Source: a bacterium
Lineage (GTDB): Bacteria; JAAXHH01
Assembly (NCBI GenBank): GCA_965242885.1
Contig: CBDETH010000008.1
Location: 150,286 to 214,285 of the forward strand
Reading direction: 5' to 3'
DNA: 64,000 nt
The notes under the pieces were generated by a model. The model had not been told where the DNA came from, did not search any database, and saw only the letters and a program-made list of their open reading frames with translations. Position numbers and translations under genes: made by a program. Positions within the stretch are counted from its first letter, which is position 1, and the number at the start of each line of letters is the position of its first letter. This document shows positions 6,240-40,765 of this stretch, one piece after another.

Positions 6240-9200
6240 TTACAGGTCTTTCAATACCGCGTATCGCCGCGCTTCCTCTCTCGATCCGGCCAGGACCAGG
6301 TAAGCCGTTTCCTCGCTGACTCCGCGAACGGCCATCTCGTGACCCCGCATGAGCTTCAGGTGCCCCCCGTCAGCGCCCCAGCTGTCCATTCGGACTCCGT
6401 TCCCCGGCGAAACGAGCACGAAGGTCCGCCCGGTGCGCGGGTTGGCGGCAGCGGCCCAGTGTCCGCCATCCTGATCGACATACCACGGGCGCCGTTTCCG
6501 CTCGCTGTCCGCCGAAAAGAGGACGGTGTCGTCCAATTCGCCGTCGGGCTTCAGGAACAGATGCCATCCGCCCCTCAATCGCCGGTGCGCGTCGGTTTCG
6601 TTCAGCAACCTCCAGACCAGTTTGATCACCGGTCCGCCCCCCAGGATCAGGGTATCGAGTTCCAGGGTCAGGCCGCGGGACGCCTCTTTGGTCAACGCCG
6701 CCCTCTGCCGCAGGCCCGTCCATTCAAGACCCCCGGCGCGATAGGAGACAGGCTCCGCGACGAACCTCTCGTCCTCGAGGGATTCCGTCCAGGACAGGCG
6801 GTCCAGAACGATCTCGGGCTGCAGCCCGCCATACCAGGGGTAGCTCCATCCGAAGGCCTCGGGTTCGGGAAAGGCGGAAGCCAGGTGGTTGCATTCGCCG
6901 CCGGCATCCCGGATGGCGCTCACGGATCCGAGGAAGGAGGGGGCCACGTCAATTTCGAGCCGCTGGTTACGAATGGTATACACCCTGTGACCCCCGGATT
7001 CGACCTCGTCGATTACCACGGCCGATCCGTCCGTCAGCCGGACGAGGGGCAATTCGACCTCCGCGCCGCGCTCCCCGCTGTCCAGCAACATGCGGCCGGT
7101 GTAGACGCCGGGCGGCCGGGACGTGGCAAGCCGCACCGAACCCTCGAAGGGTTGCCGCCAGTCGATCTCGGAGAATGAAACCCACGGCGGATCGCATCGC
7201 CAGCCGTCGGGCATGACGAAGGAAACGGTCCCGCTGGCCTTCCGTGACTTCCACTGCGCTATCCGGAACCGGAGATCGGTCTCGTCTCCGCTTACCACGG
7301 CCAGGGGAGGATCGGTCGACGCCTCGAATTCATCCAGGATCCGCGGGGCGGGTTCACCTTCGCTGGTCGATTCCCCCCGGAGACGCCTCCACAGCCGGCG
7401 CACGCCTTGCCAGCCGCCGTCCCCGACGTGCAGTCTCAAGGCGCCGAAGGTTACGCGGGACTGGGGCGCACAGGTCGTCTCCGCGCTCACCGACTGGAAC
7501 TCGTTTCCGTTCCATTCGACCTCGTCCGGGCCGTCGGCCCACAGGACCCCCATCGTTCCATGGGGCATTTCGAAGGCGCCCCACGATTCCGCATAGCGGT
7601 CGCCCGTCTTGAAATCGTGGTCATCCGGCGCGGGCAGGTCGCTGCAACGGGCCTTGAGTATCCCTTCCCGGAGCGGCAGCGTCAGCGCGGCCTGGTCCGC
7701 CCCTCCGTTCGTGACGAACTGGTAAAGGCGGGAGACGCGGGGGTCGAATCCGGTATTCTCCAGCGTGTGCTCCACGGTAATGACCGGTCCGGCGTTCAAC
7801 CGGATGATCCGGCTGAATACGAGACCGGGGGTCTTCCGGGGCGCGAAGGTTGCCGTGAGGACCACGCCGTGCCCGTCCCCCTCAGCTTTCAGCTTGAATT
7901 CCGACTCGCTGTATTCGCTGGGCCACTTCGGCGGTATGGGACGGCCGCCTTCTGTGCCCAGGTACCTCCCGGTGGCCCGGTCGCTGATCTTCAACTGGCC
8001 GCCCTCGGCCTCCAGGTTCGCCCGGAAGATCTCGTTCTCAAACCGTATCGCGCCGTCCTGGTGGTACAGCAGCCCGCCCGGCGCCAGCGCGAAGACGGCG
8101 TGTTTCGCATCCGCCAGGTCGACCGGTCCGCCCTCCCGTTCCAGGCGGCCCGACAGGGTCAGTTCGAACACGCCCGGGCGGTCTGCCTCGAGGACCGTTT
8201 CGAATCCTCCGTATCCCCGGGCGGGCACCGCTACGGATCGTGCGCTGTGGTCCACCGAGAGGCCGTCCGATACCGAGACGCGGACCTGCGCTTCCACGTC
8301 ATCGTCCAACTGGCTTTGCAGGGTTACGCGCACCGGCCGCGGTGCGCCGGGAGCCAGGGTGATCTCCCCGGGATCGATGGAAAAAGACATCTCGACGCGC
8401 GGCCGGATGCCGGTGGCGAGGTCAATGGGAAGATCGTCCCAACGTATGCTGGTGCGCACCCGCGGCGCGGTTTTCTTCACGTCCACGGATTTGGCTTTGT
8501 CCGACACACTCACCGGCGCCTCGAGGGAGATCGTCTCGCCGGGTCCCAACGTCTTCCGGCAGTGGTAGTCGATAGACAGGTCGCCCGTCTCTTTCGCCGT
8601 CAACGCGATGGTGGCCGGCACGTCCTTCCGGTTCTCCAGTTTCCACCTGAGGACCGTCTGCCCGCCCCGCACCGGCTCGATATCGTCCACCGTCGCCCGG
8701 GCGGACAGCTCCGCCGTCTCCACCGCGGTCACGTGCCGGGCTTCGCGGTCTACCCGAACCGTCAGTTCCTCCCTGTCTGCGGCGGGCGCGGCTTCATCTG
8801 ATGTCGGAGACCGATCGGCAGGCCCGGCTTCATCCGCGCCAGTCCGGGCGGCACCACCGGAGGACGGCGTCCCCCCGGACGTAAACCGGTAGGTAAACAC
8901 CCGAAGCCCTTCCCAGGTTTCGTCGTCGGGCCGCTGGTCGATCCGCCGCTGCAGCGACGCGTACCAGTCGTGCCGGTCGAAGAAGTACCGCGTACAGGGC
9001 ATCTCGAGGATGGCGGGCATGTAGTTGCGCATGATCGGCCAGCCCCCGGCGTCCCAGAAAAAACCCGTCCGCTTGTAGGGCGCCATCGCCTTCACGTTAC
9101 CCGACCAGGTGTCGAGGTCGAGGTGGTACTTCTTGTCCTCGATGGCCATTTCCACCGAACGGACGAGCAACCGACGGCCGATGCTCCTGCCCTGGAAGCG

Positions 9201-26034: not shown

Positions 26035-26045
26035 GGGAGGTTTCG

Positions 26046-26387: not shown

Positions 26388-29300
26388 TTAAGCACCAGCC
26401 TCAATTCGAGAATCGGATTCATTACTGGCAATTCCAATGTAACGATCATAAAACACCGTCAACTTGTCCAGAATGCGCTCTTTGGTTTTTGCTCGTTCGC
26501 CACTGGGTGAAAATCGGCCCCCGGGGGGCAGGATAGTGGAAAGGGCTGTACCGGTAGTTGGAACGCCCCCGTCCCGAAACGCATTGCGCATAAATCGAAA
26601 CGTTGCATCCCTATCGACGTTCTCGCTCAATACAATCTGCTCAAGTTCCTCCTTTTTGCGTTCCTCGACGAAATGCTTCCAGTCCCTATCCACGTCGGAA
26701 TGGTCCCCAAGCGAAGCAATAAATACCTGAATAAGGTCTTTCTTGTTCCGCAGTTCAACGCTTGAATCCATGGCCTTTTCTATATCGATTAAAACCTCTT
26801 TGTCCTGTTGATGGCTCTCGTGGAACTTTCTCACGAGTTCCAGAATGTAATCGATATTTATCTCGATCTGCTTGATCAACTCCATCTCGAAGACCAGGTC
26901 ATCGTTGATGTTCGCGCTTTCACCATCCCCGCCCGATCGGAAATCATCGTACAGATCTATATACATGCTGTGGTAGTCCTGTTGATCGCGCGGTGAGAGG
27001 ATTTCATTGCCCTTGAACTCATCAAATGCCGTCAGGATATTTCGGACCCGAAGAATGGTACCGTAAAGCTTGATGAAATTCCGCTGGGACTGCTCGCCAA
27101 TGATATAAGCGCCGACAGGATACTTCTCCAGCAACTCCTCCACCAGGTCGGCGTAACCGCGCACAGGGTGGTCTCCATCCTGATAACCTTCGTAGTAATC
27201 GCGGTAGGACTTCAGCAGCACAAGCCCACCCGCTTCCGGGTTGCCGAAGAGCGCGATGGACTCGTTCGTGGCCTTCTCCAAGTTTCGAAAGCAGACGATA
27301 TTTCCGAATGTCTTTACACTGTTGAGAATGCGGTTGGTGCGCGAAAACGCCTGGAGCAATCCGTGCAGGCGCAGGTTTCTGTCTACCCAAAGCGTATTCA
27401 CCGTCGTTGCGTCGAATCCCGTCAAGAACATGTTGACCACGAGGAGGACGTCGATTTCGCGGTTTTTCACCCTCTCGCTCACGTCCTTGTAGTAATTCTG
27501 AAACTTGTCGGACGACGTATCGTACGATGTTGCGAACAGGGAGTTGTAGTCCTCGATCGCGCCGTCGAGGAAGTGACGTGAACTCGCGTCAAGCCCGCTC
27601 GTATCGTCCGGGTTCTCATCCACCATCCCGTCCGGGTCTTCATCGTTCACACCGAAGCTGTAGATCAGCGCCACCTTCAGTTTTTTGTCACTTGGCGCAT
27701 CAGATAGTTGCCGTTTGAATTCCGCGTAATAGCGTCTGGCCATTTCGATAGAGGCTACGGCGAATATCGAATTGAATCCGGCGAGACGTCGATCCTTCAG
27801 CTTGTAGAAACTATTCCGCTTGGTCTTCCGGTCGAAGTGCTCGCAAATGTAGCGCACGATATTCGCAACCCGTTCCGGAGAGGCCAGCGCCGCCTTGCAA
27901 TCTATATCGGCCACCTGCTCGTCCTCGATATCCTCCGCCTCTTTGATCGTCGAGACATAATCTACCTTAAACGGCAATACGTTCTTGTCCCCGATGGCGT
28001 CCGCGATTGTGTAGGTGTGCGCCTTCTCGCCGAATGCCTGTTCGGTGGTTTTCAGGTCGGGCCGTCCCCCGGAAGCGGCGTTGGCTGCAAAGATCGGCGT
28101 GCCGGTGAATCCAAAAAGATGATACTTCGAGAATGACTTTGTTATCGCGGCGTGCATTTCGCCGAACTGCGAGCGATGGCACTCGTCGAATATGAGGACC
28201 ACATGTCTTTTGAAAACCTCATGTTCGCGGTTCAGCCTTACAAACCGGTCCAGTTTCTGAATCGTCGTGATGATGATACGGGCGTCCGGGTCTTCAAGCT
28301 GCCTTTGCAGGATCGCCGTGCTGGTATTGCTGTTTGCGGCGCCCTTCTCGAATTTGTCGTACTCCTTCATGGTCTGGTAGTCCAGATCCTTCCGATCCAC
28401 TACGAACAGGACCTTGTCGACATGTTCCATCCTGCTTGCCAGCTGCGCCGTCTTGAAACTCGTCAGGGTCTTTCCGGAGCCTGTGGTATGCCAAATGAAT
28501 CCGCCGGCCTCGACCGTGCCCAGTATCCGGTGGTTGGTACTGATGACGATTCGATTCAGTATGCGTTCCGTCGCGACGATCTGGTAAGGTCTCATGACTA
28601 GCAACAACCGGTCGGTGGTGAATACGCAGTACCGGGTCAGGACGTTAAGCAGCGTGTGCTTCGCGAAGAAGGTCCGAGAGAAATTTACCAGGTCCCTGAT
28701 GGGCTTATTGGCCGCATCGGCCCACCAACTAGTGAATTCGAAGCTGTTGCTCGATCGCTTGACGTACTTCGCCGAGCCCTGTTGGGTTTCCTTAACGTGC
28801 TGCATACGGGTCGTATTGCTGTAGTACTTCGTGTTCGTGCCATTCGAAATGACAAAAAGCTGGATGTATTCGAAAAGCCCCGCCTCTGCCCAGAAACTCT
28901 CACGCTGATAGCGATTGATCTGATTGAATGCCTCCCGTATCGGTACGCCGCGGCGCTTGAGTTCGACGTGGACCAGCGGCAGCCCGTTGACCAGCACGGT
29001 AACGTCGTATCGGTTCGCATGCAGCCCGCTGTCGGTTGTGTACTGCCTGATGACCTGCAGTTTGTTGTCGTGGATGTTGTTCTTGCTTAGTAGATAAATG
29101 TTTTTCTTCGATCCGTCGTCGCGGGTTAGTATCTTGACGTAATCTTCCTGAATCGTAGCGGTCTTTTCTTCGATACCGTCGTTCCGGTTGGCCAATTCGC
29201 TGTCGAGAAAAAGGTTCCATTCACTGTCGCTGAAACTGTAGTCATTGAGTTCCTCCAGTTGGCTTCGAAGATTCTCTATCAGGCTGTCTTCGTGCGTAAT

Positions 29301-29465
29301 CTGGATGTACTCGTACGCTTGAGATTTGAGTTGTGCAACAAAGGCACACTCAAGATCTGCCTCGCTCTGGTAACTTTCGGCGCGGTAATTCACCGGCGCG
29401 TATTCCGCCACCACAGTGCTTTGCGCCTGCTCGGCGATGACCTTATAGACAGGGTTTTCGCTCAT
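26388..29465 (-). CDS. hsdR: Type I restriction enzyme R subunit (HsdR)
   Basis: SF2 helicase motifs (…GSGKT…, DECHRS, …) and the HsdR N- and C-terminal regions; start chosen at MSENPVYKV (ATG 29465) rather than the track's upstream ATG. Confidence 0.9.
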   Translation of the reverse strand: MSENPVYKVIAEQAQSTVVAEYAPVNYRAESYQSEADLECAFVAQLKSQAYEYIQITHEDSLIENLRSQLEELNDYSFSDSEWNLFLDSELANRNDGIEEKTATIQEDYVKILTRDDGSKKNIYLLSKNNIHDNKLQVIRQYTTDSGLHANRYDVTVLVNGLPLVHVELKRRGVPIREAFNQINRYQRESFWAEAGLFEYIQLFVISNGTNTKYYSNTTRMQHVKETQQGSAKYVKRSSNSFEFTSWWADAANKPIRDLVNFSRTFFAKHTLLNVLTRYCVFTTDRLLLVMRPYQIVATERILNRIVISTNHRILGTVEAGGFIWHTTGSGKTLTSFKTAQLASRMEHVDKVLFVVDRKDLDYQTMKEYDKFEKGAANSNTSTAILQRQLEDPDARIIITTIQKLDRFVRLNREHEVFKRHVVLIFDECHRSQFGEMHAAITKSFSKYHLFGFTGTPIFAANAASGGRPDLKTTEQAFGEKAHTYTIADAIGDKNVLPFKVDYVSTIKEAEDIEDEQVADIDCKAALASPERVANIVRYICEHFDRKTKRNSFYKLKDRRLAGFNSIFAVASIEMARRYYAEFKRQLSDAPSDKKLKVALIYSFGVNDEDPDGMVDENPDDTSGLDASSRHFLDGAIEDYNSLFATSYDTSSDKFQNYYKDVSERVKNREIDVLLVVNMFLTGFDATTVNTLWVDRNLRLHGLLQAFSRTNRILNSVKTFGNIVCFRNLEKATNESIALFGNPEAGGLVLLKSYRDYYEGYQDGDHPVRGYADLVEELLEKYPVGAYIIGEQSQRNFIKLYGTILRVRNILTAFDEFKGNEILSPRDQQDYHSMYIDLYDDFRSGGDGESANINDDLVFEMELIKQIEINIDYILELVRKFHESHQQDKEVLIDIEKAMDSSVELRNKKDLIQVFIASLGDHSDVDRDWKHFVEERKKEELEQIVLSENVDRDATFRFMRNAFRDGGVPTTGTALSTILPPGGRFSPSGERAKTKERILDKLTVFYDRYIGIASNESDSRIEAGA

Positions 29466-29663
29466 ACTCGACTCCCACATGTACCAAATACGATGGCACC
29501 GTTTTCGTTGGTGGTATGGCACGCAATGAACTGGGGTTCCGCAGGCGCACAAAGTACCTTGCATCTGGATAACTGTCAAGGCGGCATACCGCCCCGCCCA
29601 TTACAGAAACTGGTCCCCAGGGAACGGGCTTGGGTCGACCGATTTGGAGAACCTGTTTTCGCT

Positions 29664-29692
29664 TTGACTAACGCCATTTCAAGATTTAGAAT
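29664..29692 (+). promoter_or_regulatory. Near-consensus sigma70 promoter (TTGACT-N17-TAGAAT) for the embedded ATPase gene
   Basis: -35 at 29664-29669 and -10 at 29687-29692, read directly, ~60 nt upstream of ATG 29753. Confidence 0.5.
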
Positions 29693-29752
29693 GCCATACA
29701 GCGTCTTTTACTGGTCGGTGAAGCGATTTCGAACGCATAAGGAATATGGATC

Positions 29753-31480
29753 TTGTTGACCGAATTAACCGTACGGAATTTCAAGCCTTTTGATGACGTC
29801 CGTATAGAACTCGCCAACCCCGTCGTGTTCATTGGCCCGAACAACTCCGGGAAGACGTCGGCAATGCAAGCACTGGCGTTGTGGAACACCGGCCTGAAGC
29901 GATGGAACGAGCGCCGTTCCGGATCACCCGCGCCTGAGCGCCGACCCGGGGTAACGGTCAACCGCCGTGACCTGATCGCCATGCCAGTTCCTTCAGCCAA
30001 TCTGCTCTGGAGGGCGCTACGTACGCGAAACGTCCGGCAAACAACCGGCGGGCCGAGGACATCCAATATCCGCATCGACGTAATCGTCGTCGGCGTCGGG
30101 AAACAGGGCGAATGGAAGTGTGGACTGGAGTTCGATTATGCCAACGAGGAGTCGATCTACTGCCGACCCTTACGAAACGATGGCGACGCCGACTCCCGCA
30201 TGGCGGTTCCCCCCGAGGCGGGCGCCGTGGAGGTCGCCTTCCTTCCCCCCATGTCAGGGCTTTCAGCCACCGAAACGCGGTTGGATCCAGGCGCGGTCGA
30301 TGTGCGCGTCGGGGAGGGCCGAACCGCGGAGGTACTGCGCAATCTTTGCTTTCAAGTCTCCGAAGGGGATCCCCACCGTTGGGAGGCCATCATATCGCGT
30401 ATAGCACAGTTGTTCGGCGCTGAAATCGATCCTCCGAAATACGTGGTCGAACGGGGAGAGGTCACCATGACCTACCGGGAGGAAGGGGTACAGCTCGACC
30501 TGTCCTCAAGCGGCCGGGGCATGCAGCAGACGCTGCTTCTCCTCGCGTACATGCACGCGAATCCCGGTGCGGTCGTCCTGCTCGACGAGCCCGACGCCCA
30601 TCTCGAAATCCTGCGGCAGCGCCAGATCTACCGAATGATCTCCGAAGAGGCGGAGGGAAATGGTTGTCAGATCATCGCGGCCAGTCATTCCGAGGTCTTG
30701 CTGAACGAAGCGGCGGGCAGGGATACGGTTGTTGCCTTCATCGGGAATCCACACCGGATCGACGACCGAGGCAGCCAGACGTTGAAGGCGCTCCGCGAAA
30801 TCGGCTTTGAGCAGTACACCCAGGCTGGTCAAACCGGCTGGGTGTTGTATCTGGAAGGGTCGACGGACCTCGCGATCCTGCAGGCCTTTGCTAAACGGCT
30901 GAATCATCGTGAAGCGATGCACGCGCTTGAGCGTCCCTTCGTCCACTATATCGGAAACCAATTGGCGAAGGCGGAAAGCAATTTTCACGGACTCAGGGAA
31001 GCGCTGCCCACGCTGCGAGGCATAGCAATCCTGGACGAGATCACGCGGGACCAACCCGCCGACGGGCTGGCGTGCATGGCGTGGGAGCGGCGGGAAATCG
31101 AAAATTACCTCTGCACTCAAGCGACGCTTGAAGCCTACGCCGCTTCAAGCGATAGGGCGGCAGCAGTCGGACCTCTCTTCGAATACGCAGAGGCAAAAAA
31201 ACGACTGGACGCAATGCGGGCCGCCATCCGGGAAGTATCCGCGGCAATGATCACTCTGGGTCGGGGATCTCCCTGGGACGCAGACGCCAAGGTGAGCGAT
31301 GAATTCCTTGCCCCACTCTTCGCCGACTATTTCGAACGGCTGCAACTCCCCAATCTGATGAACAAGAGTAGTTACCACAAGTTGGTGGACTTTGTTCCCG
31401 ATCAGGAGATTGACCCTGGGATCAGACGCGTCCTGGACGCCATCGCGACAACGGATGCGGAATCCAGCGGAAAGGCCTGA
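29753..31480 (+). CDS. ABC-type ATPase (AAA_21/AAA_15-like) with a C-terminal TOPRIM/DUF4435-like domain (OLD-family / PARIS-like / PrrC-like position)
   Basis: Walker A (GPNNSGKTS), Walker B (VVLLDEPDAHLE), H-loop (IIAASHSE); the C-terminal region carries VLYLEGSTDLAIL and ILDEITRD (TOPRIM-like E…DxD); lies between hsdR and hsdS on the opposite strand. Confidence 0.6.
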   Translation: MLTELTVRNFKPFDDVRIELANPVVFIGPNNSGKTSAMQALALWNTGLKRWNERRSGSPAPERRPGVTVNRRDLIAMPVPSANLLWRALRTRNVRQTTGGPRTSNIRIDVIVVGVGKQGEWKCGLEFDYANEESIYCRPLRNDGDADSRMAVPPEAGAVEVAFLPPMSGLSATETRLDPGAVDVRVGEGRTAEVLRNLCFQVSEGDPHRWEAIISRIAQLFGAEIDPPKYVVERGEVTMTYREEGVQLDLSSSGRGMQQTLLLLAYMHANPGAVVLLDEPDAHLEILRQRQIYRMISEEAEGNGCQIIAASHSEVLLNEAAGRDTVVAFIGNPHRIDDRGSQTLKALREIGFEQYTQAGQTGWVLYLEGSTDLAILQAFAKRLNHREAMHALERPFVHYIGNQLAKAESNFHGLREALPTLRGIAILDEITRDQPADGLACMAWERREIENYLCTQATLEAYAASSDRAAAVGPLFEYAEAKKRLDAMRAAIREVSAAMITLGRGSPWDADAKVSDEFLAPLFADYFERLQLPNLMNKSSYHKLVDFVPDQEIDPGIRRVLDAIATTDAESSGKA

Positions 31481-31588
31481 GGCCTAGCAAAGACCGGGAG
31501 TCCGAAATCAGCCTTTACGCCACCCATCGGACCTAGCGAAGCCCAGTAGTAAAATCCAGACTCGTCAGACCGGAACGCAGGCAGAGAA

Positions 31589-32263
31589 TCACGCCGGGTT
31601 AACCGACGGTTCCCCCGATTCCGGCCTGGGTTCGAAAGTTAGCAGCCTGTCCCGGTAATACTCGTATTGTTTCCGACGCGCGGCCAGTTCGGCCGGCAAC
31701 CCGATCGTAATATCGTTCACGAGCATATCGAAACGATCCAGGATCGAGACGATACGCTTCTGTTCGGTTAGGGGCGGGACGGGGATTTTGATCTTTTTAA
31801 TCGCGCGAGGGTGAACCCGATAGACTTTCGTGCCAGTTGCAAATCTCCTGAACTCGCTCAAGTATGAGTTGGACATCAGAATGTAATTGAGAAAACCCGG
31901 CGCTATCAGGTCTTTCCTGATGATTTTCAGTACGGTAGTTTCAGTCCCGGCAAGAAACTTTTGTTGGGTAGTATTCTCGATCAACACGGCCTTTCCGATG
32001 TCGTCCTTCGTTTCCGAAGTCAGATTATAAACGATGTCGCCCGTATCCAGTAGTTGATCGTTTCGAAAACGTTCATTTGCCGAAACTTTAGCTATATGAT
32101 CGAACTCTGAATCGAGATTGACCACCCTGTGATATAGTTTGTAAACATCTCCATAATGAATGTACGGTATTGTATTTATTGCAGAAATCCGGTTGCGTGG
32201 AATACTTGCGCCTTTGCTGAACGTTGCAATATCACCTATCTTCACCCCCCCCCCCCCCCCCAT
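31589..32263 (-). CDS. hsdS: HsdS C-terminal half (TRD2 plus distal conserved region); begins at an ATG fused to the poly-G tract
   Basis: …IPVPPLTEQKRIVSILD…RRKQYEYYRDRLL… is the HsdS conserved region; MGGGGG is encoded by the homopolymer. Confidence 0.75.
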   Translation of the reverse strand: MGGGGGVKIGDIATFSKGASIPRNRISAINTIPYIHYGDVYKLYHRVVNLDSEFDHIAKVSANERFRNDQLLDTGDIVYNLTSETKDDIGKAVLIENTTQQKFLAGTETTVLKIIRKDLIAPGFLNYILMSNSYLSEFRRFATGTKVYRVHPRAIKKIKIPVPPLTEQKRIVSILDRFDMLVNDITIGLPAELAARRKQYEYYRDRLLTFEPRPESGEPSVNPA

Positions 32264-32918
32264 CTAATTCATTGATATTAAACAACTTATCTCTGTAATA
32301 CTCATACTGCTTTTTTCTTGCTTCCAGCTCTGCTTCCAGCTCTGCTTCCAGCTCTTTAAAAGTGTCGAGGGTTTTCACGATCTCTGCTTGGATAGGCAAG
32401 GGGGGAATGGGGATTTCGAGACGTGACCACTTGCTCTTTGTAAGTCCAAATCGCGTAATCCCCGTCGCTGCTTTTTGAATTTGCTTTTGTAGTTCGTCAG
32501 ATTCAAATAAATATGCAATGTAACAAGAAGTAGTATAGTTGGATTTATGGGGTCGAAGCCTCATTACATGATAACTATACACGGCGTTGTGGATGTTTTC
32601 GACAGCGACGGCAGATATGCCTATATCTTCCTTAGTTTCAGAAGTTGGTGTAATAAAAATATCACCTCGTTTAATGTCGCAGCTTTCGAATTGTGCGTCT
32701 GTCGCAGTCACCTTCATTTTCAATATGTCCTTAGAAATGAACTGGTTTCTCACGACATCCATGTAATTTAAAAGTAAAACTTGTTTCTGCCCTTCCTTGG
32801 TCTTTTTATCTGCACCGACCTTTCCGAATCCGCATAATCTGCCCAACGCCCGAAACTCCACCCCATCCGGACACAATTCGGATATCAGTTTCTCGATACG
32901 ACCCACGTGCGTTTTCAT
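32232..32918 (-). CDS. hsdS: HsdS N-terminal half (TRD1 plus central conserved region), truncated by a frameshift at the poly-G tract
   Basis: …LEIPIPPLPIQAEIVKTLD…KKQYEYYRDKLF…; the start ATG overlaps the hsdM stop (ATGA). Confidence 0.8.
   Translation of the reverse strand: MKTHVGRIEKLISELCPDGVEFRALGRLCGFGKVGADKKTKEGQKQVLLLNYMDVVRNQFISKDILKMKVTATDAQFESCDIKRGDIFITPTSETKEDIGISAVAVENIHNAVYSYHVMRLRPHKSNYTTSCYIAYLFESDELQKQIQKAATGITRFGLTKSKWSRLEIPIPPLPIQAEIVKTLDTFKELEAELEAELEARKKQYEYYRDKLFNINELDGGGGGGEDR
32245..32261 (-). repeat. Homopolymeric tract of 17 G (minus strand; 17 C on plus) at the junction of the two hsdS halves: a candidate phase-variation switch
   Basis: Counted directly; a 1-nt contraction to 16 G fuses the halves in frame (…LDGGGGGVKIGD…). 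Confidence 0.85.
32318..32356 (-). repeat. 12-bp x3 tandem repeat encoding (ELEA)3 in the HsdS central conserved region
   Basis: tgcttccagctc x3 read directly; analogous to the TAEL copy-number variation that changes spacer length in EcoR124I/II. Confidence 0.8.
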
Positions 32919-34480
32919 CTCGTTCCTTCTATTTCTAATACGATTTCGTCGATGGCCGTGCGGAGTTCCTGCTGGTGCGCAACGATCCGGTCGATCTCCT
33001 CGTTGAGCGCCTTGATATCGATAGTCTCCCGGGTGTCCTCGGGCTCCACGTAACTCGAAACCGAGATATTGTAGTCGTTCTGAGCGATAGCCTTGTTGTC
33101 GATCAGGGCGGCGAAGTGTTCGATGTCGACGCGATCAGCGTACGCCTTGAGGATCTTCGCGCGGTGCTCATCGGCCAGCTTGTTCTTGTTGCCTGAACGG
33201 ACGAATTCGGAGGATGCCTCGATGAAGAGCGTCTTGTTGTCCGCCTTGCTTTTTTTCAGCACGATGATGCAGGTGGCGATGCTGGTTCCGAAGAAGAGAT
33301 CGGGGGGTAGCTGGATCACTGTGTCGATGTAGTTGTTTTCAATGAGATAGCGACGAATCTTCATTTCGGCTCCGCCGCGATACAGTACTCCTGGAAACTC
33401 GACTATGGCAGCTGTACCGCTGGTTGAAAGCCAGGAAAGCATGTGCATGACGAAAGCGAGATCGGCCTTGCTTTTGGGCGCCAAAACGCCTGCTGGAGAA
33501 AACCGCGGGTCGTTGATGAGGATCGGATTCGCGTCGCCGTCCCATTTGATCGAATAGGGCGGATTGGAGACTATGGCGTCAAACGGTTCATCGTCCCAAT
33601 GCGCCGGGTCGGTGAGTGTGTCTCCGAGGGCGATATCGAACCGCTCGTAATTGATGTCATGCAGGAACATGTTGATGCGGCAGAGGTTAAAGGTCGTGAG
33701 GTTTACCTCCTGCCCGAAGAAACCTTGGCGAACCTTCTCCTTCCCTAGCACCTTGGAGAACTTCAGCAGCAACGAACCCGAACCACAAGCCGGATCGTAT
33801 ACCTTGTTTACATCGTGCCGGCCGACGGTCGTGATTTCTGCGAGCAATTCGCTGACCTCCTGCGGGGTGAAAAATTCGCCGCCGGACTTGCCCGCGTTCG
33901 ATGCATACATCGTCATCAGGTATTCGTAGGCATCTCCGAAAGCGTCTATGGTAGAGTCGGCGTAATCCTGGAAACTCAGTCCGGCAATGGCGTCGAGCAG
34001 TCTAACCAGTTTACGGTTCCGCTGTTCCACCGTGGCGCCGAGTTTGGGCGAGTTTACGTCTAGGTCATCGAAGAGGCCCTTCAGGTCGTCCTCGCTCGCA
34101 GTGCCCTTTGCCGAGTTCTCGATATTTCTAAAGACCCTGGCGAGCGTTTCGTTCAGGTCCTGGTCTTGTCGCGCGGAAGCCGCCACACTGGCAAACAACT
34201 CGGAGGGCAGGATGTAAAATCCTTTCTCCTTTACCGTTTCGTCACGCCCCAACTCCGCATTTTCGTCCGACAGTTCTGCGTAATCGAAATCGGAGATGCC
34301 CCCTCGACGTTCGTCGTCGTTGATATAGGCGGTGAGGTTCTCGCTGATAAATCGGTAGAACAACATCCCCAGCACGTATTGCTTGAAGTCCCAACCGTCC
34401 ACGCTGCCCCGTAGATCATTGGCAATCTGCCAGATCGTGCGGTGCAGTTCTTCCCGATCTTGATGATTAGCGTGTGTCAT
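32915..34480 (-). CDS. hsdM: Type I restriction-modification methyltransferase subunit (HsdM)
   Basis: HsdM N-terminal domain plus N6-adenine MTase motifs (…DPACGSGS…, NPPY). Confidence 0.9.
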   Translation of the reverse strand: MTHANHQDREELHRTIWQIANDLRGSVDGWDFKQYVLGMLFYRFISENLTAYINDDERRGGISDFDYAELSDENAELGRDETVKEKGFYILPSELFASVAASARQDQDLNETLARVFRNIENSAKGTASEDDLKGLFDDLDVNSPKLGATVEQRNRKLVRLLDAIAGLSFQDYADSTIDAFGDAYEYLMTMYASNAGKSGGEFFTPQEVSELLAEITTVGRHDVNKVYDPACGSGSLLLKFSKVLGKEKVRQGFFGQEVNLTTFNLCRINMFLHDINYERFDIALGDTLTDPAHWDDEPFDAIVSNPPYSIKWDGDANPILINDPRFSPAGVLAPKSKADLAFVMHMLSWLSTSGTAAIVEFPGVLYRGGAEMKIRRYLIENNYIDTVIQLPPDLFFGTSIATCIIVLKKSKADNKTLFIEASSEFVRSGNKNKLADEHRAKILKAYADRVDIEHFAALIDNKAIAQNDYNISVSSYVEPEDTRETIDIKALNEEIDRIVAHQQELRTAIDEIVLEIEGTR

Positions 34481-34789: not shown

Positions 34790-36043
34790 TCACCCGCCGA
34801 GCGCCCATCCCGTGGGTATCCCCATCACGCCATCACCCAGGTCTCGGATGTGAGGATCATTGGATAGCACCAGCGCCTGGAGGACGGGTTTGTCCAGGAT
34901 CTCATCCAAACGACGCAAATGGCGCGCATCCCTTTGCGAGACCTTTTCTTTGAATTTGATTTCGATAGGCACATAGCCGCTTTCGGTCTCGATCAGCAGA
35001 TCAACTTTCCGACCGTCGACTGTTCGCAGATGATGAAAATCAACGGGCAACCTCAGATTTCGCGCTTGCTTAAAGATCTCCACGATGATGGCACCTTCGA
35101 ATTCGGTACCCGTTGGCCGGGACCTGCGGTTGAGCAGTGCGCGTTGGACGCCTGGATCGAGGAAGTGTATTTTCGCTGCCTTGGAAAGGCGTTTGTTTCG
35201 GTTTCTGAACCACGGCTGTAACTGGATGATCTGGTAACTGATTTCGAGGTAGGAAACAAAACGAATGATCGTCCTGTGCGTCACGCTGGCGAGACGGGCC
35301 AGTTCGCTGATATTCAGCAAACCGCCAGCCAAACCGCCCAATGCCCGCAACATGCGTACATAGGGCACCAGGTCCCGAAGATTGGCCAGATCTCGAAGGT
35401 CTCTTTGCAGATACGTTCGCAGGTAGTCCTGTAGCCACCCGTACCGGTCCTCCCGGGACAGCGTGATATCGGAAACTACCGGCATGCCCCCGAATTCCAG
35501 GTAGTGATCGAGATGATCAACCGCTCTGGCGTACCTGTCGCATTGCTGGGGTATCCCTGATACGAGGATTTCAAGATCCCCCGATACAAGATACCGGACC
35601 AGGCGGGATTCCACGACCGGATCGTGCCAGGAATCGGTCATCATTTCCGGTATCGTGAGTGGATACAGTTCCATAATCGTGACGCGTCCAGCCAGGCTCT
35701 CCCGTATCTGCTCCATCAACAGGATCTGGCTGGATCCAAGCAGAATGGCACGGGCGTCGGTATACCGGTCGTACACCGCCTTGATGGATTCGACAATCGA
35801 TGGCGCTTTCTGAATTTCGTCCAGGATGACCCTGGGATAACGTTGGTACCACAGTGCCGCTGAAAGCGCAGTATAGTCCGGGCGCACGATCGGGTCTTCG
35901 AGCGAGACGAAACCGTATTCAGGAAACCCGGCCTGTACCAGGGTGGTCTTGCCTGTTTGACGGGCACCTGTCAATGCGATCAGTCGTCCCAGGCGGGTAT
36001 CTGCCTTCTGTTTCATCAAGGACAGCACAGTCCGGTTTTTCAT
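34790..36043 (-). CDS. AAA+ ATPase with a DUF4143 domain
   Basis: Walker A (GARQTGKTT) and the C-terminal DUF4143-like region; a common defence-island passenger. Confidence 0.7.
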   Translation of the reverse strand: MKNRTVLSLMKQKADTRLGRLIALTGARQTGKTTLVQAGFPEYGFVSLEDPIVRPDYTALSAALWYQRYPRVILDEIQKAPSIVESIKAVYDRYTDARAILLGSSQILLMEQIRESLAGRVTIMELYPLTIPEMMTDSWHDPVVESRLVRYLVSGDLEILVSGIPQQCDRYARAVDHLDHYLEFGGMPVVSDITLSREDRYGWLQDYLRTYLQRDLRDLANLRDLVPYVRMLRALGGLAGGLLNISELARLASVTHRTIIRFVSYLEISYQIIQLQPWFRNRNKRLSKAAKIHFLDPGVQRALLNRRSRPTGTEFEGAIIVEIFKQARNLRLPVDFHHLRTVDGRKVDLLIETESGYVPIEIKFKEKVSQRDARHLRRLDEILDKPVLQALVLSNDPHIRDLGDGVMGIPTGWALGG

Positions 36044-36329: not shown

Positions 36330-37919
36330 TTAGTCAGGCTGTCCCGCCGGAACTGGAGTCAGAGGGGGTTCAGTCACGGTCAACATCCCCGTACCCGATA
36401 CTCCGTCCATTGCGGCTTTGATCGTGGCTTCTCCAGCCGAAACACCCATAGCGAGACCAGAGGTGTCAATCGTCGCAACAGATTCATCCGAACTTGTCCA
36501 CGTAAACGCCACATCCGGGACCGACATCCCGTCAGCCGCCTTGGCCACTGCTTCGAGCTGCCGGGCTTGGCCTTCCTCGACTGTCGTCTCCGATGGAGTC
36601 ACTTCGATGATCGCTACCTCCGGCTTGCCGTCCGTCAGTTTCTGGATTGTATTGGGCACACTGTCAACCGAAGTGACCTCATCGATCTGCTTTGTGACAC
36701 GGACGTTTAACTCCGGGAACTTGTTAACCGTCGGCGCGATGCGGGAATCCCACGAGCCGACGCCTTTGTTGTACCGTTCTACCGCCTGCCGAAGCGACTT
36801 GCCCACGTCGATATAGTGCCCGGCAAAAACCGTCAGCCGTTCGTACATCTCCTTGCCCAGGTCGCTGATCTGCCGGGCGGTCTCCGCGACGCGGATCTGC
36901 TGCCAAGACATCTCCACGGCCTTGAGAAGCGCCAGCAGGGCGGGCGGCGTGACGATCACCACGTTCTTCTCGAGGGCCCGGTCCGTTAGCCCGGGTTCCC
37001 GCTCGACGGCGGGGATGAAAGCGAATTCGGGCAAGACCATCACCACCATGTCCGGCGTAGAGGCCAGGACGCTCCAGTACTCTTTCCTGGCCAGGGAGTC
37101 CACGTGACTTTTTACCTGGCTGACATGGCGATCGAACGCGGCGGACCTGGATTCGTCGTCGTCCGTCTCGAAGGCTTCCATAAGCGCCGTCAGTGACACC
37201 TTGGAATCGAGAATGACCGTCCGGTCCTGCGGCAGATGGACGATCACATCGGTTCGGATCCGTTCGCCTTCGCTGTCGAAGCTGTCCTGCACCGTGAAAT
37301 CGATATCCTTACTAAGGCCCGAAAGCTCCAGCACGCGCTCGAGCTGCGTTTCGCCCCAGCGTCCGCGCACGTCGGGCCGCTTGAGCGCGTTGGAAAGCGT
37401 CTGGGCCTCGCTGGCAAGTTCCTTGTTGGTCTGCATGAGGTTCAGCATCTGGGTGCGGAATTCACCGGCGTTTTCCGCCCGCGCCTTGTCCAGCGACACG
37501 ATTTTCTCCGATAGGGGCTTGACCAGTTTCTCGACGGCTTCCTGGCGTGCTTTTAACGATTCCTCGGCGTTTGCCTTGAACGATTCCTGCTGCGACTTCA
37601 GGACTTCCGACGACAGGGCCTTGAAGGTGTCCTTAAACCGCTTCTCGACCTCGTCCCGCTCGCCGAGGCGTTCCTGCGCATTGGTGAGTTTCTGAAGCAG
37701 TTCGGCCCGTTCAACTTCCAGCTTCCGGACTTCCTCCAGTGACTTCCCCGCTTCGGCCAGTTGCTCGCGCACGACGCCCAGTTTGGTCTCCATGGCCGCC
37801 TTCTCGCCGCTGAGCGTATAGATCCGGCTGCTGTTTCTTAAACTCCAGACCAGCACGCCTGCCGCCAGCGCCAGGCATCCCAGGAGCGCGATGAGCAATA
37901 TGATCGTCAGTGTGTCCAT
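36330..37919 (-). CDS. RmuC-family protein (membrane-anchored, coiled-coil, PD-(D/E)xK-like) with a C-terminal Big_2 Ig-like domain
   Basis: N-terminal TM, long coiled coil, RmuC core (…RPDVRGRWGETQLERVLELSG…), then …EVTPSETTVEEGQARQLEAVAKAADG…ATIKA… (Big_2-like). Confidence 0.6.
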   Translation of the reverse strand: MDTLTIILLIALLGCLALAAGVLVWSLRNSSRIYTLSGEKAAMETKLGVVREQLAEAGKSLEEVRKLEVERAELLQKLTNAQERLGERDEVEKRFKDTFKALSSEVLKSQQESFKANAEESLKARQEAVEKLVKPLSEKIVSLDKARAENAGEFRTQMLNLMQTNKELASEAQTLSNALKRPDVRGRWGETQLERVLELSGLSKDIDFTVQDSFDSEGERIRTDVIVHLPQDRTVILDSKVSLTALMEAFETDDDESRSAAFDRHVSQVKSHVDSLARKEYWSVLASTPDMVVMVLPEFAFIPAVEREPGLTDRALEKNVVIVTPPALLALLKAVEMSWQQIRVAETARQISDLGKEMYERLTVFAGHYIDVGKSLRQAVERYNKGVGSWDSRIAPTVNKFPELNVRVTKQIDEVTSVDSVPNTIQKLTDGKPEVAIIEVTPSETTVEEGQARQLEAVAKAADGMSVPDVAFTWTSSDESVATIDTSGLAMGVSAGEATIKAAMDGVSGTGMLTVTEPPLTPVPAGQPD

Positions 37920-37929
37920 GTGAAGATTT

Positions 37930-38544
37930 CTATCCTTTTATCACTTCAAGTAAGATGATTCTTGTTTCCTTGCAGAACTGTTCCAATAGTAGAGGAGAAA
38001 AACGACTCGACAACATCATTTTACCTGGTGTAATCGAATTGACTTTAGCTCCATAATGCCTTCGAACCACCTCATCAAATCTTTTTCGTGTTCTTGCATT
38101 TCCGTGGGCGATGTGATTTCTTACTTTCCTTAAATCGGATATAAAACTCCCATATATAGTTATAGTATTGATAAAGTGTTCATCTGCGGGAAACAGGTTT
38201 TCCAGGTTTTTTTTGATATCCGACGCTCGCCCCCATCTGAGCTGAATTCTGCTGTTGGAACTTCTCTCATATTCCAACATCGCTACACGAGCTCTTTTAA
38301 AGCTTCTTGTAGGACGGTGTCTGAGTAGCTGCGGAGTCGACCCGTCGCAGTAATTTGTACCGCATATCATCCGACAAGCTGAATCCTCAAATATGACCTC
38401 CAAAAGAGAGAATAGACGTACAACTATCATTTCGGCCAAGTAAATACGAGGAAGACTATCTAATGAATTTAAACGGGTTACAAGAGTTAATGCAGTTTCA
38501 GTTGTGTGACGGATTCTGTCAGCCTGTGGATGTAGAGTTGACAT
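37930..38544 (-). CDS. HEPN-like protein (Rx4H motif RNHIAH)
   Basis: 204-aa, all-alpha prediction by eye, with a C-terminal-half KVRNHIAHGN motif matching the HEPN Rx4-6H consensus; 5 nt downstream of the DUF262 gene. Confidence 0.4.
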   Translation of the reverse strand: MSTLHPQADRIRHTTETALTLVTRLNSLDSLPRIYLAEMIVVRLFSLLEVIFEDSACRMICGTNYCDGSTPQLLRHRPTRSFKRARVAMLEYERSSNSRIQLRWGRASDIKKNLENLFPADEHFINTITIYGSFISDLRKVRNHIAHGNARTRKRFDEVVRRHYGAKVNSITPGKMMLSSRFSPLLLEQFCKETRIILLEVIKG

Positions 38545-38549
38545 TGTAA

Positions 38550-39548
38550 CTACAAAAACCTGCTGATATAATTGGAACGAACTTTCCGACTAGCAATCCG
38601 TTGAGTACTAGCCCTACAAGCATCTGCAAAATCAACATCCACTTTAGGGCGATCACTTAGTGGCTTATCTGAGTTAAACCTTTCGTCGATCTCAAATAGA
38701 GCTTCTTCTAGTTTCCTGCCCTTAGCACCCGAGTTCGAGTCCAGCGCAAGTACCAAAGAGAAAAACACAGGTTTTCTTGAGAAAATCGTATCGCGGATTG
38801 ACGAAGGTGATAACGAGACAATCCTATCAAACACCGAGTCCAGCCTCTTTTGGATTTCTGGAGCTTCGGCAAAGGACTCGTCATTGTCGGCATAGAGTTT
38901 CTTTAACCTGGAATTTGAGAAATCTGATAACCCCTCAATCATATTCAGAATGATGTCAGAGATAAACTCAACTTCTTGCATACGTGCGATGTTGTTCGCT
39001 GTGAATACTCTTAAATCTCTCCACAGAGATAACCGAGATGCTGCTTCACGTAAGCAAAACTGTTTAAACTCCCCACTAAAGTCTGCGTTACGCTTTTCTT
39101 GCAGGTTAAGAGTCTTAGCAACAGAATTCAAACGTCCAAAAACCTCAATAACATCTGCATCCGAAGCTCCTAGAAGCCACCCACCAGATAGTTTTGTTTC
39201 ACGAAATACTCTTTTTTGATTTGTTGAGAGCATTTCATAGGTCACCTTGCCTTGATGTACAGGATGATATGCAGCGTACTCACCGCTGATATATTCCAGA
39301 ATTGCTCGGATACGTTGCTGACCATCGACTACTTCTCTAAGGCTCCTATCCTGTTCTAGATCAACAATGTGCCTAAAGTAAAGAGTGGGAACTGGTTTCT
39401 GTTCAAACAGCGTATTAAGAAGGTACGACTTCTGGGGTATCGTCCACACAGAACGCCGTTGGTACCATGGATTTAACTTTAGCTCCTTGTGTTTCTCCCA
39501 GTTAACAAGATCTTGTACAATCAAAGGTTCATAATCTACACGATCCAT
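38550..39548 (-). CDS. DUF262 (ParB/Srx-like, DGQQR motif) protein
   Basis: …REVVDGQQRIRAILEY… is the DUF262/GmrS-like signature. Confidence 0.7.
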   Translation of the reverse strand: MDRVDYEPLIVQDLVNWEKHKELKLNPWYQRRSVWTIPQKSYLLNTLFEQKPVPTLYFRHIVDLEQDRSLREVVDGQQRIRAILEYISGEYAAYHPVHQGKVTYEMLSTNQKRVFRETKLSGGWLLGASDADVIEVFGRLNSVAKTLNLQEKRNADFSGEFKQFCLREAASRLSLWRDLRVFTANNIARMQEVEFISDIILNMIEGLSDFSNSRLKKLYADNDESFAEAPEIQKRLDSVFDRIVSLSPSSIRDTIFSRKPVFFSLVLALDSNSGAKGRKLEEALFEIDERFNSDKPLSDRPKVDVDFADACRASTQRIASRKVRSNYISRFL

Positions 39549-40024
39549 GTTCTTCTCCTCCAGTTTTGTCTTTGATACAGTACTACACGATGTTCACATC
39601 GTACCAAAGGTATTTAGTTGGTTTTAGTAGAGACAATGGAACTCAGATTTGCCCTGTCAATAAACTAATACTCATATAATCTTACACATCAACTTGACAC
39701 GGGTTTCCAAATACTTGTGATTTCACCGTTGTTCGGATTTACGATCGGTATTAAGTCTAAGAATTACCAGGTATCTCATTACGGAACATACTTGAATCAA
39801 TCCTCCTATAATGCCAAACACGAGTTGATAATTCGATCAACTCGCTATTCTCATTTAAAATCTAAAATACATAAATGTCTTATAAGCATGACATCTCAAT
39901 TGAAAGGTATTTGCGTAGTTCCTTTGGGATGATACCCCTGTGTACCCACTACCGACAATCGAAAATGCGGTACAAACTGAGTTTCCTAGCGTTTAAACGA
40001 CAATTGCTAATTTTAACTCTACGA

Positions 40025-40765
40025 CTATCTACTTGAGTGCCATTTATAACAAGATGACTCTTTCATCCATTCCGCAGAGACCCTGGCCAGTTCCTCCATG
40101 ACGGGTTCGTCGGTGTTCCGCCGCTTCAGTACCTTAAATCCATGATCCGCCGTATCCACGACGTGCAGCGTCGCGGTTGGCAGGTCGTCCGCGACCGGCT
40201 GCAGCAGATCCAGGTCCGCCATCGAGTCCCGCTGGCCGGACAGGAACAGCATGGGTACGTCGACCGCCTTCAGATGTTCGGCGCGCTCCGTGTTCTTCTT
40301 GCCCGCATGCAGGGGAAAGGCGAAGAACACGATGCCCCGCAGCCCTTCGATGGGTTCTCGGGCGCAGGCCGTCGAGACCATCCGGCCGCTCATGGAATGC
40401 CCGCCGGCGAACACCGGCAGCCCGTCGGCGCTTTCCTTCGCCGTCTCGATGGCCGCCCGCACCGTGGCCAGGCGCACCTTCTCGCCGTCCATCCCCCCGC
40501 CGCCCTTTTCGGAATAGGGATAGTTGAATCGCAATGTGGCGACTCCCGCATCGTTCAATGCTTCGCTCAGTTCCTCCATGAACCGATGGCGCATGTTCGT
40601 GCCCGATCCGTGTCCCAACACGAGCAGGGCATGTGCGGCGGCCGGACCGCCGGCGCCGCCTGTGCCACCTGCGCCTGATGAGCCGCCCGGCCTCGCCAGA
40701 ATGGCCGATACCTCGCCTTTCTCTTCAGTCGTTATGAACTTCAATTCTCTCGTATCAACGGACAT
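40025..40765 (-). CDS. Alpha/beta hydrolase (dienelactone-hydrolase-like)
   Basis: GHSMSG nucleophile elbow and a C-terminal DHGF His; Gly-rich insert near the N-terminus. Confidence 0.6.
   Translation of the reverse strand: MSVDTRELKFITTEEKGEVSAILARPGGSSGAGGTGGAGGPAAAHALLVLGHGSGTNMRHRFMEELSEALNDAGVATLRFNYPYSEKGGGGMDGEKVRLATVRAAIETAKESADGLPVFAGGHSMSGRMVSTACAREPIEGLRGIVFFAFPLHAGKKNTERAEHLKAVDVPMLFLSGQRDSMADLDLLQPVADDLPTATLHVVDTADHGFKVLKRRNTDEPVMEELARVSAEWMKESSCYKWHSSR

Follow-up and report, generated by a model that had tools for sequence, protein, structure and literature searches.

PD-T4-2 is a two-gene system ('DUF262, HEPN'; two coding sequences in 1,540 bp) that was recovered by functional selection from Escherichia coli ECOR65, protects E. 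coli K-12 against T4 and, when deleted, sensitises ECOR65 (Vassallo 2022, PMC9519451). Its first protein, PD-T4-2A, corresponds to PF03235, and the top HHpred match of the second, PD-T4-2B, is PF18735 (97.8%, residues 23-162), followed by PF18737, MAE_28990 (PMC9519451). Reviews place PD-T4-2 among the DUF262 systems without DUF1524 and regard these as largely uncharacterised (PMC10952713, PMC12065111), and Table 1 of Anantharaman et al. 2013 had already listed a 'Ribo L-PSP-HEPN ... operon with ParB' (Biol Direct 8:15, PMC3710099). In GmrSD, BrxU and SspE, DUF262 senses modified DNA and nucleoside triphosphate (NTP) hydrolysis licenses the nuclease (PMC10952713, PMC12065111), and HEPN domains dimerise into Rx4H RNase sites that cleave tRNA or mRNA in defence (bioRxiv 10.64898/2026.02.22.705581). 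Here we describe a DUF262-HEPN gene pair in a stretch of 64,000 nucleotides of bacterial DNA (the window; positions 150,286 to 214,285 of contig CBDETH010000008.1, assembly GCA_965242885.1). We consider, with a probability of about 0.72, that positions 37923-40063 of the window are a self-contained, horizontally acquired PD-T4-2-type DUF262-HEPN cassette, of which the adjoining RmuC::Big_2 gene is not a component.

The original prediction, made from the letters of the window alone, had proposed that three minus-strand genes at 36330-39548 constitute an uncharacterised defence module. The three open reading frames (ORFs) are present as described, in the order DUF262, 204-amino-acid (aa) protein and RmuC::Big_2, and their coordinates and the gaps between them (5 nt from DUF262 to HEPN and 10 nt from HEPN to rmuC) were all reproduced, as were the domain calls in Pfam (GmrSD_N, HEPN_RiboL-PSP, RmuC and Big_2). 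What had to be revised is the membership of the module, since DUF262 and HEPN hold as a defence-type pair and RmuC does not hold as its third member. The features concerned are the following, GC being the guanine-plus-cytosine content:

37923-40063, minus strand: whole cassette (leader, DUF262 gene and HEPN gene), 2,141 bp, about 40% GC
39549-40063, minus strand: 5' leader of the cassette, AT-rich, about 37-42% GC
38550-39548, minus strand: DUF262 gene, 332 aa
37930-38544, minus strand: HEPN gene, 204 aa
36330-37919, minus strand: RmuC::Big_2 gene, 529 aa
40025-40765: Abhydrolase_11 gene, with its 3' end (40025-40063) from inserted low-GC DNA

Scanning species-representative genomes (one per species) with the DUF262 alignment yielded 80 loci in more than 10 phyla, covering Binatia, Pirellulales, Verrucomicrobiales, Acidobacteriota, Bacteroidota, Actinomycetota, Chloroflexota, Nitrospira, Spirochaetia and alpha-, beta-, gamma- and delta-proteobacteria. 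The HEPN profile matched the ORF immediately 3' of DUF262 in 73/80 loci (E 1e-103 to 1e-13), a contig-truncated HEPN copy was found by tblastn in one more (L029), and the remaining 6 loci either stop at a contig edge (3) or are DUF262 pseudogene fragments (3), so that a HEPN partner accompanies 74/74 intact DUF262 orthologues with downstream DNA. IMG/VR contributed 5 viral contigs with the pair, HEPN being present in 5/5. Strand and order, DUF262 and then HEPN, were the same in all 74 evaluable genome loci and all five viral contigs, the HEPN orthologues in these loci measured about 203 aa, and the gap between the two genes was -4 to +12 nt in 63/69 loci. Identity to the window copies co-varied between the two proteins across loci (r = 0.81), with DUF262 evolving much more slowly (mean identity to the window protein 53%, against 35% for HEPN). 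An exhaustive profile search returned 493 HEPN-partner clusters at 50% identity which, among the matches listed, were stand-alone proteins of about 200 aa or shorter fragments. Finally, five HEPN homologues from unrelated metagenomes or genomes were all preceded by DUF262, with HEPN 2-3 nt on, between flanks that differed from case to case (LamB_YcsF/Sox; IlvD; PS decarboxylase/SSF transporter; MaoC/UvrA; ABC substrate-binding genes).

No conserved third gene emerged when the ORFs within 5 kb on each side of the pair were clustered all-against-all in the 80 loci: apart from DUF262 (in 79 loci), HEPN (in 73) and their antisense shadows, the largest genuine clusters were a C5 cytosine methyltransferase (7/80 loci) and a tyrosine integrase (5/80 loci), both at variable positions. 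RmuC, whose conservation with the pair was the proposed check on the triad, was found by blastp in 0/80 DUF262 loci and near the pair on 0/5 viral contigs; it was likewise absent from six further contexts, those of the five HEPN homologues included, and stood beside the pair only on a contig identical to the window.

The boundaries of the cassette were obtained from two relatives, L098 (Gemmatimonadota, GCA_022821085.1) and L100, in which genes for a large protein, CN_hydrolase, His_Phos_1, a 207-aa protein, Abhydrolase_11 and, after 55 nt, RmuC follow one another, with RraA-like, ACPS, Amidohydro_3 and further genes beyond RmuC on the opposite strand. The backbone of the window around rmuC is the same, and neither relative has a DUF262 or HEPN gene between hydrolase and rmuC. 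In blastn against L098, homology ends at window position 40064, in the hydrolase, and restarts 3 nt ahead of the ATG of rmuC, at 37922, which identifies DUF262 and HEPN as a 2,141-bp insertion; the junctions could be read directly by comparison with L098 and L100, where the site is empty, and the GC step coincides with the cassette boundaries. Lost to the cassette were the last codons of the hydrolase and the entire ancestral hydrolase-rmuC spacer, including a promoter-like TTGACT-containing stretch before rmuC, and the last 11 residues and the stop codon of the Abhydrolase_11 gene are now newly encoded by the first 39 nt of the leader (relatives end in ...AGWMAGLR before the stop, the window in ...AEWMKESSCYKWHSSR). 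Neither target-site duplications nor terminal inverted repeats were found at the insertion junctions. The 10-nt HEPN-rmuC gap, and with it the operon-like look of the locus, is thus explained by a cassette that inserted exactly between the hydrolase gene and rmuC and replaced the ancestral spacer.

Composition separates the same genes. DUF262, HEPN and the 5' leader have about 37-43% GC, RmuC about 57-65%, the other island genes about 42-63% and the host about 65%, and the abrupt rise at the start codon of rmuC speaks against one unit of three genes. The low-GC island is more than one compositional unit; what stood of the low-GC defence island described beside a Type I restriction-modification (R-M) system is a region rich in defence genes, and what did not is its compositional unity. 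Across 68 loci the cassette lay more than 5 GC points under its flanks in 60 (mean difference 11.8 points) and in none more than 5 points above them. On the viral contigs the pair sits near contig ends, with an integrase, an Eco29kI R-M system or an AbiJ-like HEPN gene as neighbours, and in L005 it adjoins a XamI/Eco57I-type R-M system. Judged by its sequence and surroundings, the DUF262-HEPN cassette is of horizontal origin.

The locus could still be read as one defence system of DUF262, HEPN and RmuC::Big_2, the RmuC protein serving as its membrane-anchored PD-(D/E)xK DNase effector. The three genes share a strand with only 10 nt before rmuC, no terminator-like site was found between HEPN and rmuC (one lies 3' of rmuC, at 36159-36140), rmuC has lost its ancestral upstream spacer and is probably co-transcribed, and members of the RmuC family are found in some defence settings (the PADLOC RTasRmuC model matches at 1.4e-63). 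As a conserved system the triad is refuted, and we hold this reading to be extremely improbable, given the absence of RmuC from the pair elsewhere, the sharp GC step at the HEPN-rmuC junction and the identity of the gene itself. The 529-aa protein matches RmuC (PF02646) at 1.2e-81 and Big_2 at 1.2e-12 in Pfam, and NCBIfam PRK10361 at 1.3e-42, under the equivalog cutoff; it has a full-length RmuC domain, an N-terminal anchor and a coiled coil, and is orthologous and syntenic within the lineage. Its closest homologues are proteins of 451 aa annotated 'DNA recombination protein RmuC [Gemmatimonadetes bacterium]' on Mb-scale contigs, the RmuC part being 86-90% identical to Gemmatimonadetes homologues, and orthologues in relatives stand without DUF262 or HEPN directly upstream. 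Moreover, in L099, a relative from a TARA metagenome, the slot between Abhydrolase_11 and RmuC::Big_2 holds an unrelated 203-aa, 42.5%-GC gene (7368-7979). By orthology and synteny, RmuC is a housekeeping core gene of the lineage that stands outside the module.

Since the ancestral spacer was lost and HEPN and rmuC are not separated by a terminator-like site, transcripts started in the cassette probably now read through into rmuC, which, if so, would be a local accident and not a conserved design; that the insertion put rmuC under infection-responsive transcription in this Gemmatimonadota lineage is more speculative. The leader presumably carries the cassette promoter; a single weak sigma-70-like match lies in it, at 39958-39929. 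Because RNA antitoxins accompany AbiF-type HEPNs, a conserved non-coding element was sought upstream of the cassette; 10 cassettes share only the ribosome-binding site, Rfam gave no match and there were no meaningful repeats, and this candidate was rejected.

The 204-aa protein is a stand-alone RiboL-PSP-family HEPN and the proposed RNase effector of the pair. PF18735 (HEPN_RiboL-PSP) is its best Pfam family (E = 3.8e-6, residues 27-163), is matched individually by 17/28 family members and also appears in the precomputed annotation of homologues P0001 and P0009. The 28 HEPN homologues can be aligned end to end, with R139, R142, N143, H144, A146 and E38 invariant and H147 at least 90% conserved; because R142 is invariant and H147 so widely kept, the canonical motif was assigned as R142-x4-H147, in line with the Rx4-6H motif first noticed in this protein. 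The AlphaFold2 model built from the family alignment (predicted local distance difference test, pLDDT, 92.7; predicted template modelling score, pTM, 0.88) folds as HEPN, so that the fold, for which a structural check had been suggested, is confirmed. The closest solved folds are HepT-type toxin-antitoxin (TA) toxins. Unlike in HepT/MNT and other HEPN toxins (5yep, 7ae2, 8xdj), the partner here is a DUF262 NTPase and not an MNT nucleotidyltransferase antitoxin, and the window HEPN is about 70 residues longer than these toxins and bears a conserved CGxxYxDG loop insert.

This loop, at residues 57-68 (window positions about 38341-38376), is a conserved non-helical stretch of the form (C)xxxCGxxY(C)DG between helices 2 and 3, with C61, G62, Y65 and G68 invariant; canonical HEPN cores lack it, and it may serve as an interface or have a regulatory role. 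A family link to the MAE_28990 HEPN of an E. coli plasmid was considered and rejected, as hhalign covers only 21 residues around Rx4H with 6% probability.

For the 332-aa protein, Pfam places GmrSD_N (DUF262, PF03235) at residues 14-157 (E = 1.4e-15), and the motifs YQRRSVW (QRxxxW), VDGQQR (DGQQR) and FGRLN (FxxxN) are unchanged throughout the 31 DUF262 orthologues aligned, which bears out the DGQQR motif first noticed in this protein. Its AlphaFold2 model (pLDDT 87.4) is alpha/beta in the N-terminal domain and entirely helical in the C-terminal half, and a DUF1524/HNH nuclease domain is absent both in Pfam and in that half. The model has a ParB fold and comes closest to the structures of BrxU and SspE, both type IV restriction enzymes; a PDB sequence search with the DUF262 and HEPN family profiles gave no significant match, and NCBIfam has no model for either protein. 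The protein combines a ParB/Srx-fold NTPase domain with a helical, putative DNA-binding half, and we propose that it acts as the sensor or switch subunit.

The proximity to BrxU and SspE also agrees with another assignment of roles, in which DUF262 would be the effector, a ParB-like DNase or nickase for type-IV-like restriction of modified DNA, and HEPN would be regulatory, nucleotide-binding or scaffolding. Nuclease annotations exist for some ParB-fold proteins (PadC, pNOB8 ParB-N), and the phage used to select PD-T4-2, T4, has modified DNA. We judge this assignment quite unlikely. GmrSD, BrxU and SspE share with the window protein the DUF262 NTPase fold with its QR, DGQQR and FxxxN motifs, but they are single polypeptides that cleave DNA via a C-terminal DUF1524/HNH His-Me DNase domain (PMC10952713), which is absent here, where a HEPN is encoded separately; and the (nearly) invariant catalytic R and H of HEPN argue for an active RNase.

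Among described systems the window pair most resembles PD-T4-2 in architecture, with two genes in the same order, DUF262 (PF03235) and then a small HEPN, no DUF1524/HNH, and PF18735 over the same region of the second protein (residues 23-162 in PD-T4-2B, 27-163 in the window HEPN), a likeness judged from the PADLOC models and the published HHpred table. The statement that the combination could not be named as a system is therefore superseded, as DUF262 with a RiboL-PSP HEPN is the PD-T4-2 architecture (PMC9519451) and its link to ParB was listed in 2013 (PMC3710099). The operons of the 2013 survey (RiboL-PSP-HEPN and MAE_28990-HEPN with ParB; PMC3710099) show the same clade association and an active Rx4H, but they form a table entry that defines no system or mechanism, whereas the window group is a discrete, length-invariant subfamily inside that loose class. 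The pair differs from PD-T4-2 in size (332 + 204 aa, against roughly 350 + 160 aa for ECOR65 as inferred from the 1,540-bp locus and the 363-position PD-T4-2_A model) and in its far wider spread and higher conservation. The best PADLOC model for the DUF262 protein is NsnA of Menshen (NsnABC; Millman 2022; Bell et al. 2025, PMC12065111), at 1.6e-26 over residues 4-259, and the two share a ParB-DUF262 plus helical 'ParBDB'-type layout with a proposed DNA-sensing role (PMC12065111); in contrast to Menshen, no NsnB ABC-ATPase or NsnC inPIN-effector is conserved beside the pair, which has a separate HEPN instead.

Several observations weigh against a PD-T4-2-type assignment. PD-T4-2_A (PDLC04027) comes second for the DUF262 protein (1.3e-19, 68.5 bits), below NsnA, and its match is partial, in two stretches, the best of which pairs residues 12-89 with model positions 41-114 of 363; the PADLOC PD-T4-2_B model matches neither the window HEPN nor any of the 28 family members (0/28) even at E <= 10. 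The suggested PADLOC search thus recovered the A subunit in part and the B subunit not at all, and for this reason homology to the validated E. coli proteins holds at the level of domain families only. The window HEPN also falls 1 bit short of the PF18735 gathering cutoff (27.4 against 28.4 bits), the conservation of DUF262 (44-81% identity across phyla) is unusual for a defence gene, phage protection is known from the E. coli system only, and a mechanism of PD-T4-2 itself was not found described in the literature searched. The PD-T4-2_B model is narrow: it also misses the HEPN partners of other DUF262 pairs (L014, L015, L016 and L098). With no PD-T4-2_B match the pair was not classed as a strict PADLOC PD-T4-2, and by its domains it is placed as a two-gene system of DUF262 and a RiboL-PSP-clade HEPN whose archetype is PD-T4-2.

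The HepT-like fold of the HEPN protein raises the question of whether the pair is instead a selfish, TA-like addiction module, spread by horizontal transfer, with HEPN as toxin, the DUF262 protein as antitoxin and no dedicated anti-phage function. Two tightly coupled genes with a potentially toxic RNase in second place, inserted naked between housekeeping genes and usually without a recognisable mobility gene, would suit such a module, and at three decayed loci (L090, L093 and L097) all that is left of DUF262 is a truncated or frameshifted fragment and no HEPN remnant was detected, which is consistent with a decay of the cassette in which the presumably toxic HEPN does not persist alone. We consider this explanation unlikely, because the same architecture, as PD-T4-2, protects against T4 natively and heterologously, the invariant NTPase motifs of DUF262 suggest an active switch over a passive inhibitor, and the cassette recurs beside R-M systems, AbiJ-like genes, integrases and prophage ends; TA behaviour and abortive-infection defence are, moreover, not mutually exclusive.

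By analogy with GmrSD, BrxU and SspE and with HEPN effectors, the preferred reading of a PD-T4-2-type defence cassette would work as follows. The HEPN gene would be translationally coupled to the DUF262 gene, and the DUF262 subunit would bind DNA, with NTP binding and hydrolysis as the switch. Phage DNA, possibly modified, would be sensed by DUF262, releasing or activating a HEPN dimer that may cut RNA (tRNA or mRNA), halting translation and aborting the infection. That DUF262 evolves more slowly than HEPN, and that catalytic residues are invariant in both proteins, fits two active subunits.

As a more tentative possibility, which we regard as doubtful at present, the DUF262/HEPN group may be a mechanistically distinct defence or abortive-infection system missed by current models, in which a slow-evolving DUF262 would sense a universal feature of invader DNA and gate a fast-evolving HEPN RNase; if so, it would offer a tractable model for the control of a trans-acting RNase by a ParB-fold NTPase. 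Independently of this, the comparison defines an orthologous DUF262-HEPN group, strictly of two genes and very widespread, to which the PADLOC B model is blind; a dedicated profile would help to annotate defence genes in many environmental phyla. The high conservation of the family recommends it for structural and biochemical studies of the PD-T4-2-type mechanism. It also removes a false lead, as DUF262-HEPN-RmuC is not a system and its tight spacing is an artefact of insertion, and illustrates that empty-site comparison can tell core genes from defence cargo.

The RmuC::Big_2 protein has features of its own. Its N-terminus, ILLIALLGCLALAAGVLVW, is an evident hydrophobic anchor by sequence, as the call of a membrane-anchored protein had it, and the Big_2 ending, described as unusual, is found in only 3 among the best 120 RmuC homologues (itself, P0154 and P0193). 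The tail corresponds to window positions 36330-36735 and is absent from L098, L100 and the 86-90% identical Gemmatimonadetes orthologues; in blastn against L098, homology stops at 36736, where the tail starts, and restarts at 26039, in the RraA-like gene. The nearest relatives of the tail are multi-Big_2 surface proteins (63% identity). Ig-like domains are usually extracytoplasmic, and an Ig-like C-terminus on an N-terminally anchored, presumed cytoplasmic nuclease is a topological oddity.

The rmuC/rraA junction of the window is filled by a DUF4143 gene and a Type I R-M system, the latter at 26388-34480:

34790-36043: AAA_14/DUF4143 ATPase, PADLOC candidate single-gene system PDC-S01 (1.5e-75)
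32915-34480: hsdM, Type I R-M
31589-32263 and 32232-32918: two short adjacent hsdS-like ORFs
29753-31480, plus strand: OLD/AriA/NsnB-like ABC ATPase, in opposite orientation between hsdR and hsdS
26388-29579: hsdR, Type I R-M

The DUF4143 ATPase lies directly 3' of RmuC::Big_2 in the window and in L099, with 81.7% DNA identity over both genes, and is not at that place in L098 and L100; the Type I R-M block (8.7 kb) is absent from L099. The 203-aa protein in the upstream slot of L099, whose N-terminus reads MSTSYTSNVFLNFPFDAQY..., gave no Pfam, PADLOC, NCBIfam or PHROGs match and was rejected as a HEPN relative, having no Rx4H and no similarity to the HEPN family; it may be single-gene defence cargo at the same hotspot. 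Because L099 carries a different low-GC gene in the same slot, the hydrolase/rmuC junction is taken as a cargo hotspot, and both it and the rmuC-rraA junction are variable hotspots in the lineage.

Searching plasmids and phages for PD-T4-2 by tblastn retrieved only other DUF262+HEPN variants, none matching PD-T4-2_B. In E. coli IncF plasmids (L015:2869-4569) DUF262 is followed by a MAE_28990 HEPN, an Rx4H partner of about 210 aa, and in an E. coli prophage integrated at icd (L016:2968-4679) by a partner of about 210 aa with RNACAH, beside an integrase. PADLOC detects only the A subunit of both, as NsnA or PD-T4-2_A, and DUF262+HEPN pairs are probably under-called in enterobacteria too. A Rhodococcus plasmid (L014) carries a DUF262 partner with RDRISH. 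In L098 itself a second DUF262 gene (660-1715, 351 aa), about 7 kb upstream of rmuC, matches PD-T4-2_A at 1.2e-50 over its full length and is followed by an uncalled ORF of about 163 aa (about 1720-2215) with RIYLTH, an Rx4H motif; by sequence, this pair seems to resemble PD-T4-2 more closely, its HEPN gene having escaped gene calling. The C5 methyltransferase (DrmMII/Type II-like) lies a few kb from the cassette in L033, L040, L044 and L063 among the seven loci that have it, and is also present on one viral contig (L102:6451-7701); this proximity echoes a 2013 remark on operons of ParB, HEPN and methylase, and may be coincidental clustering in defence islands.

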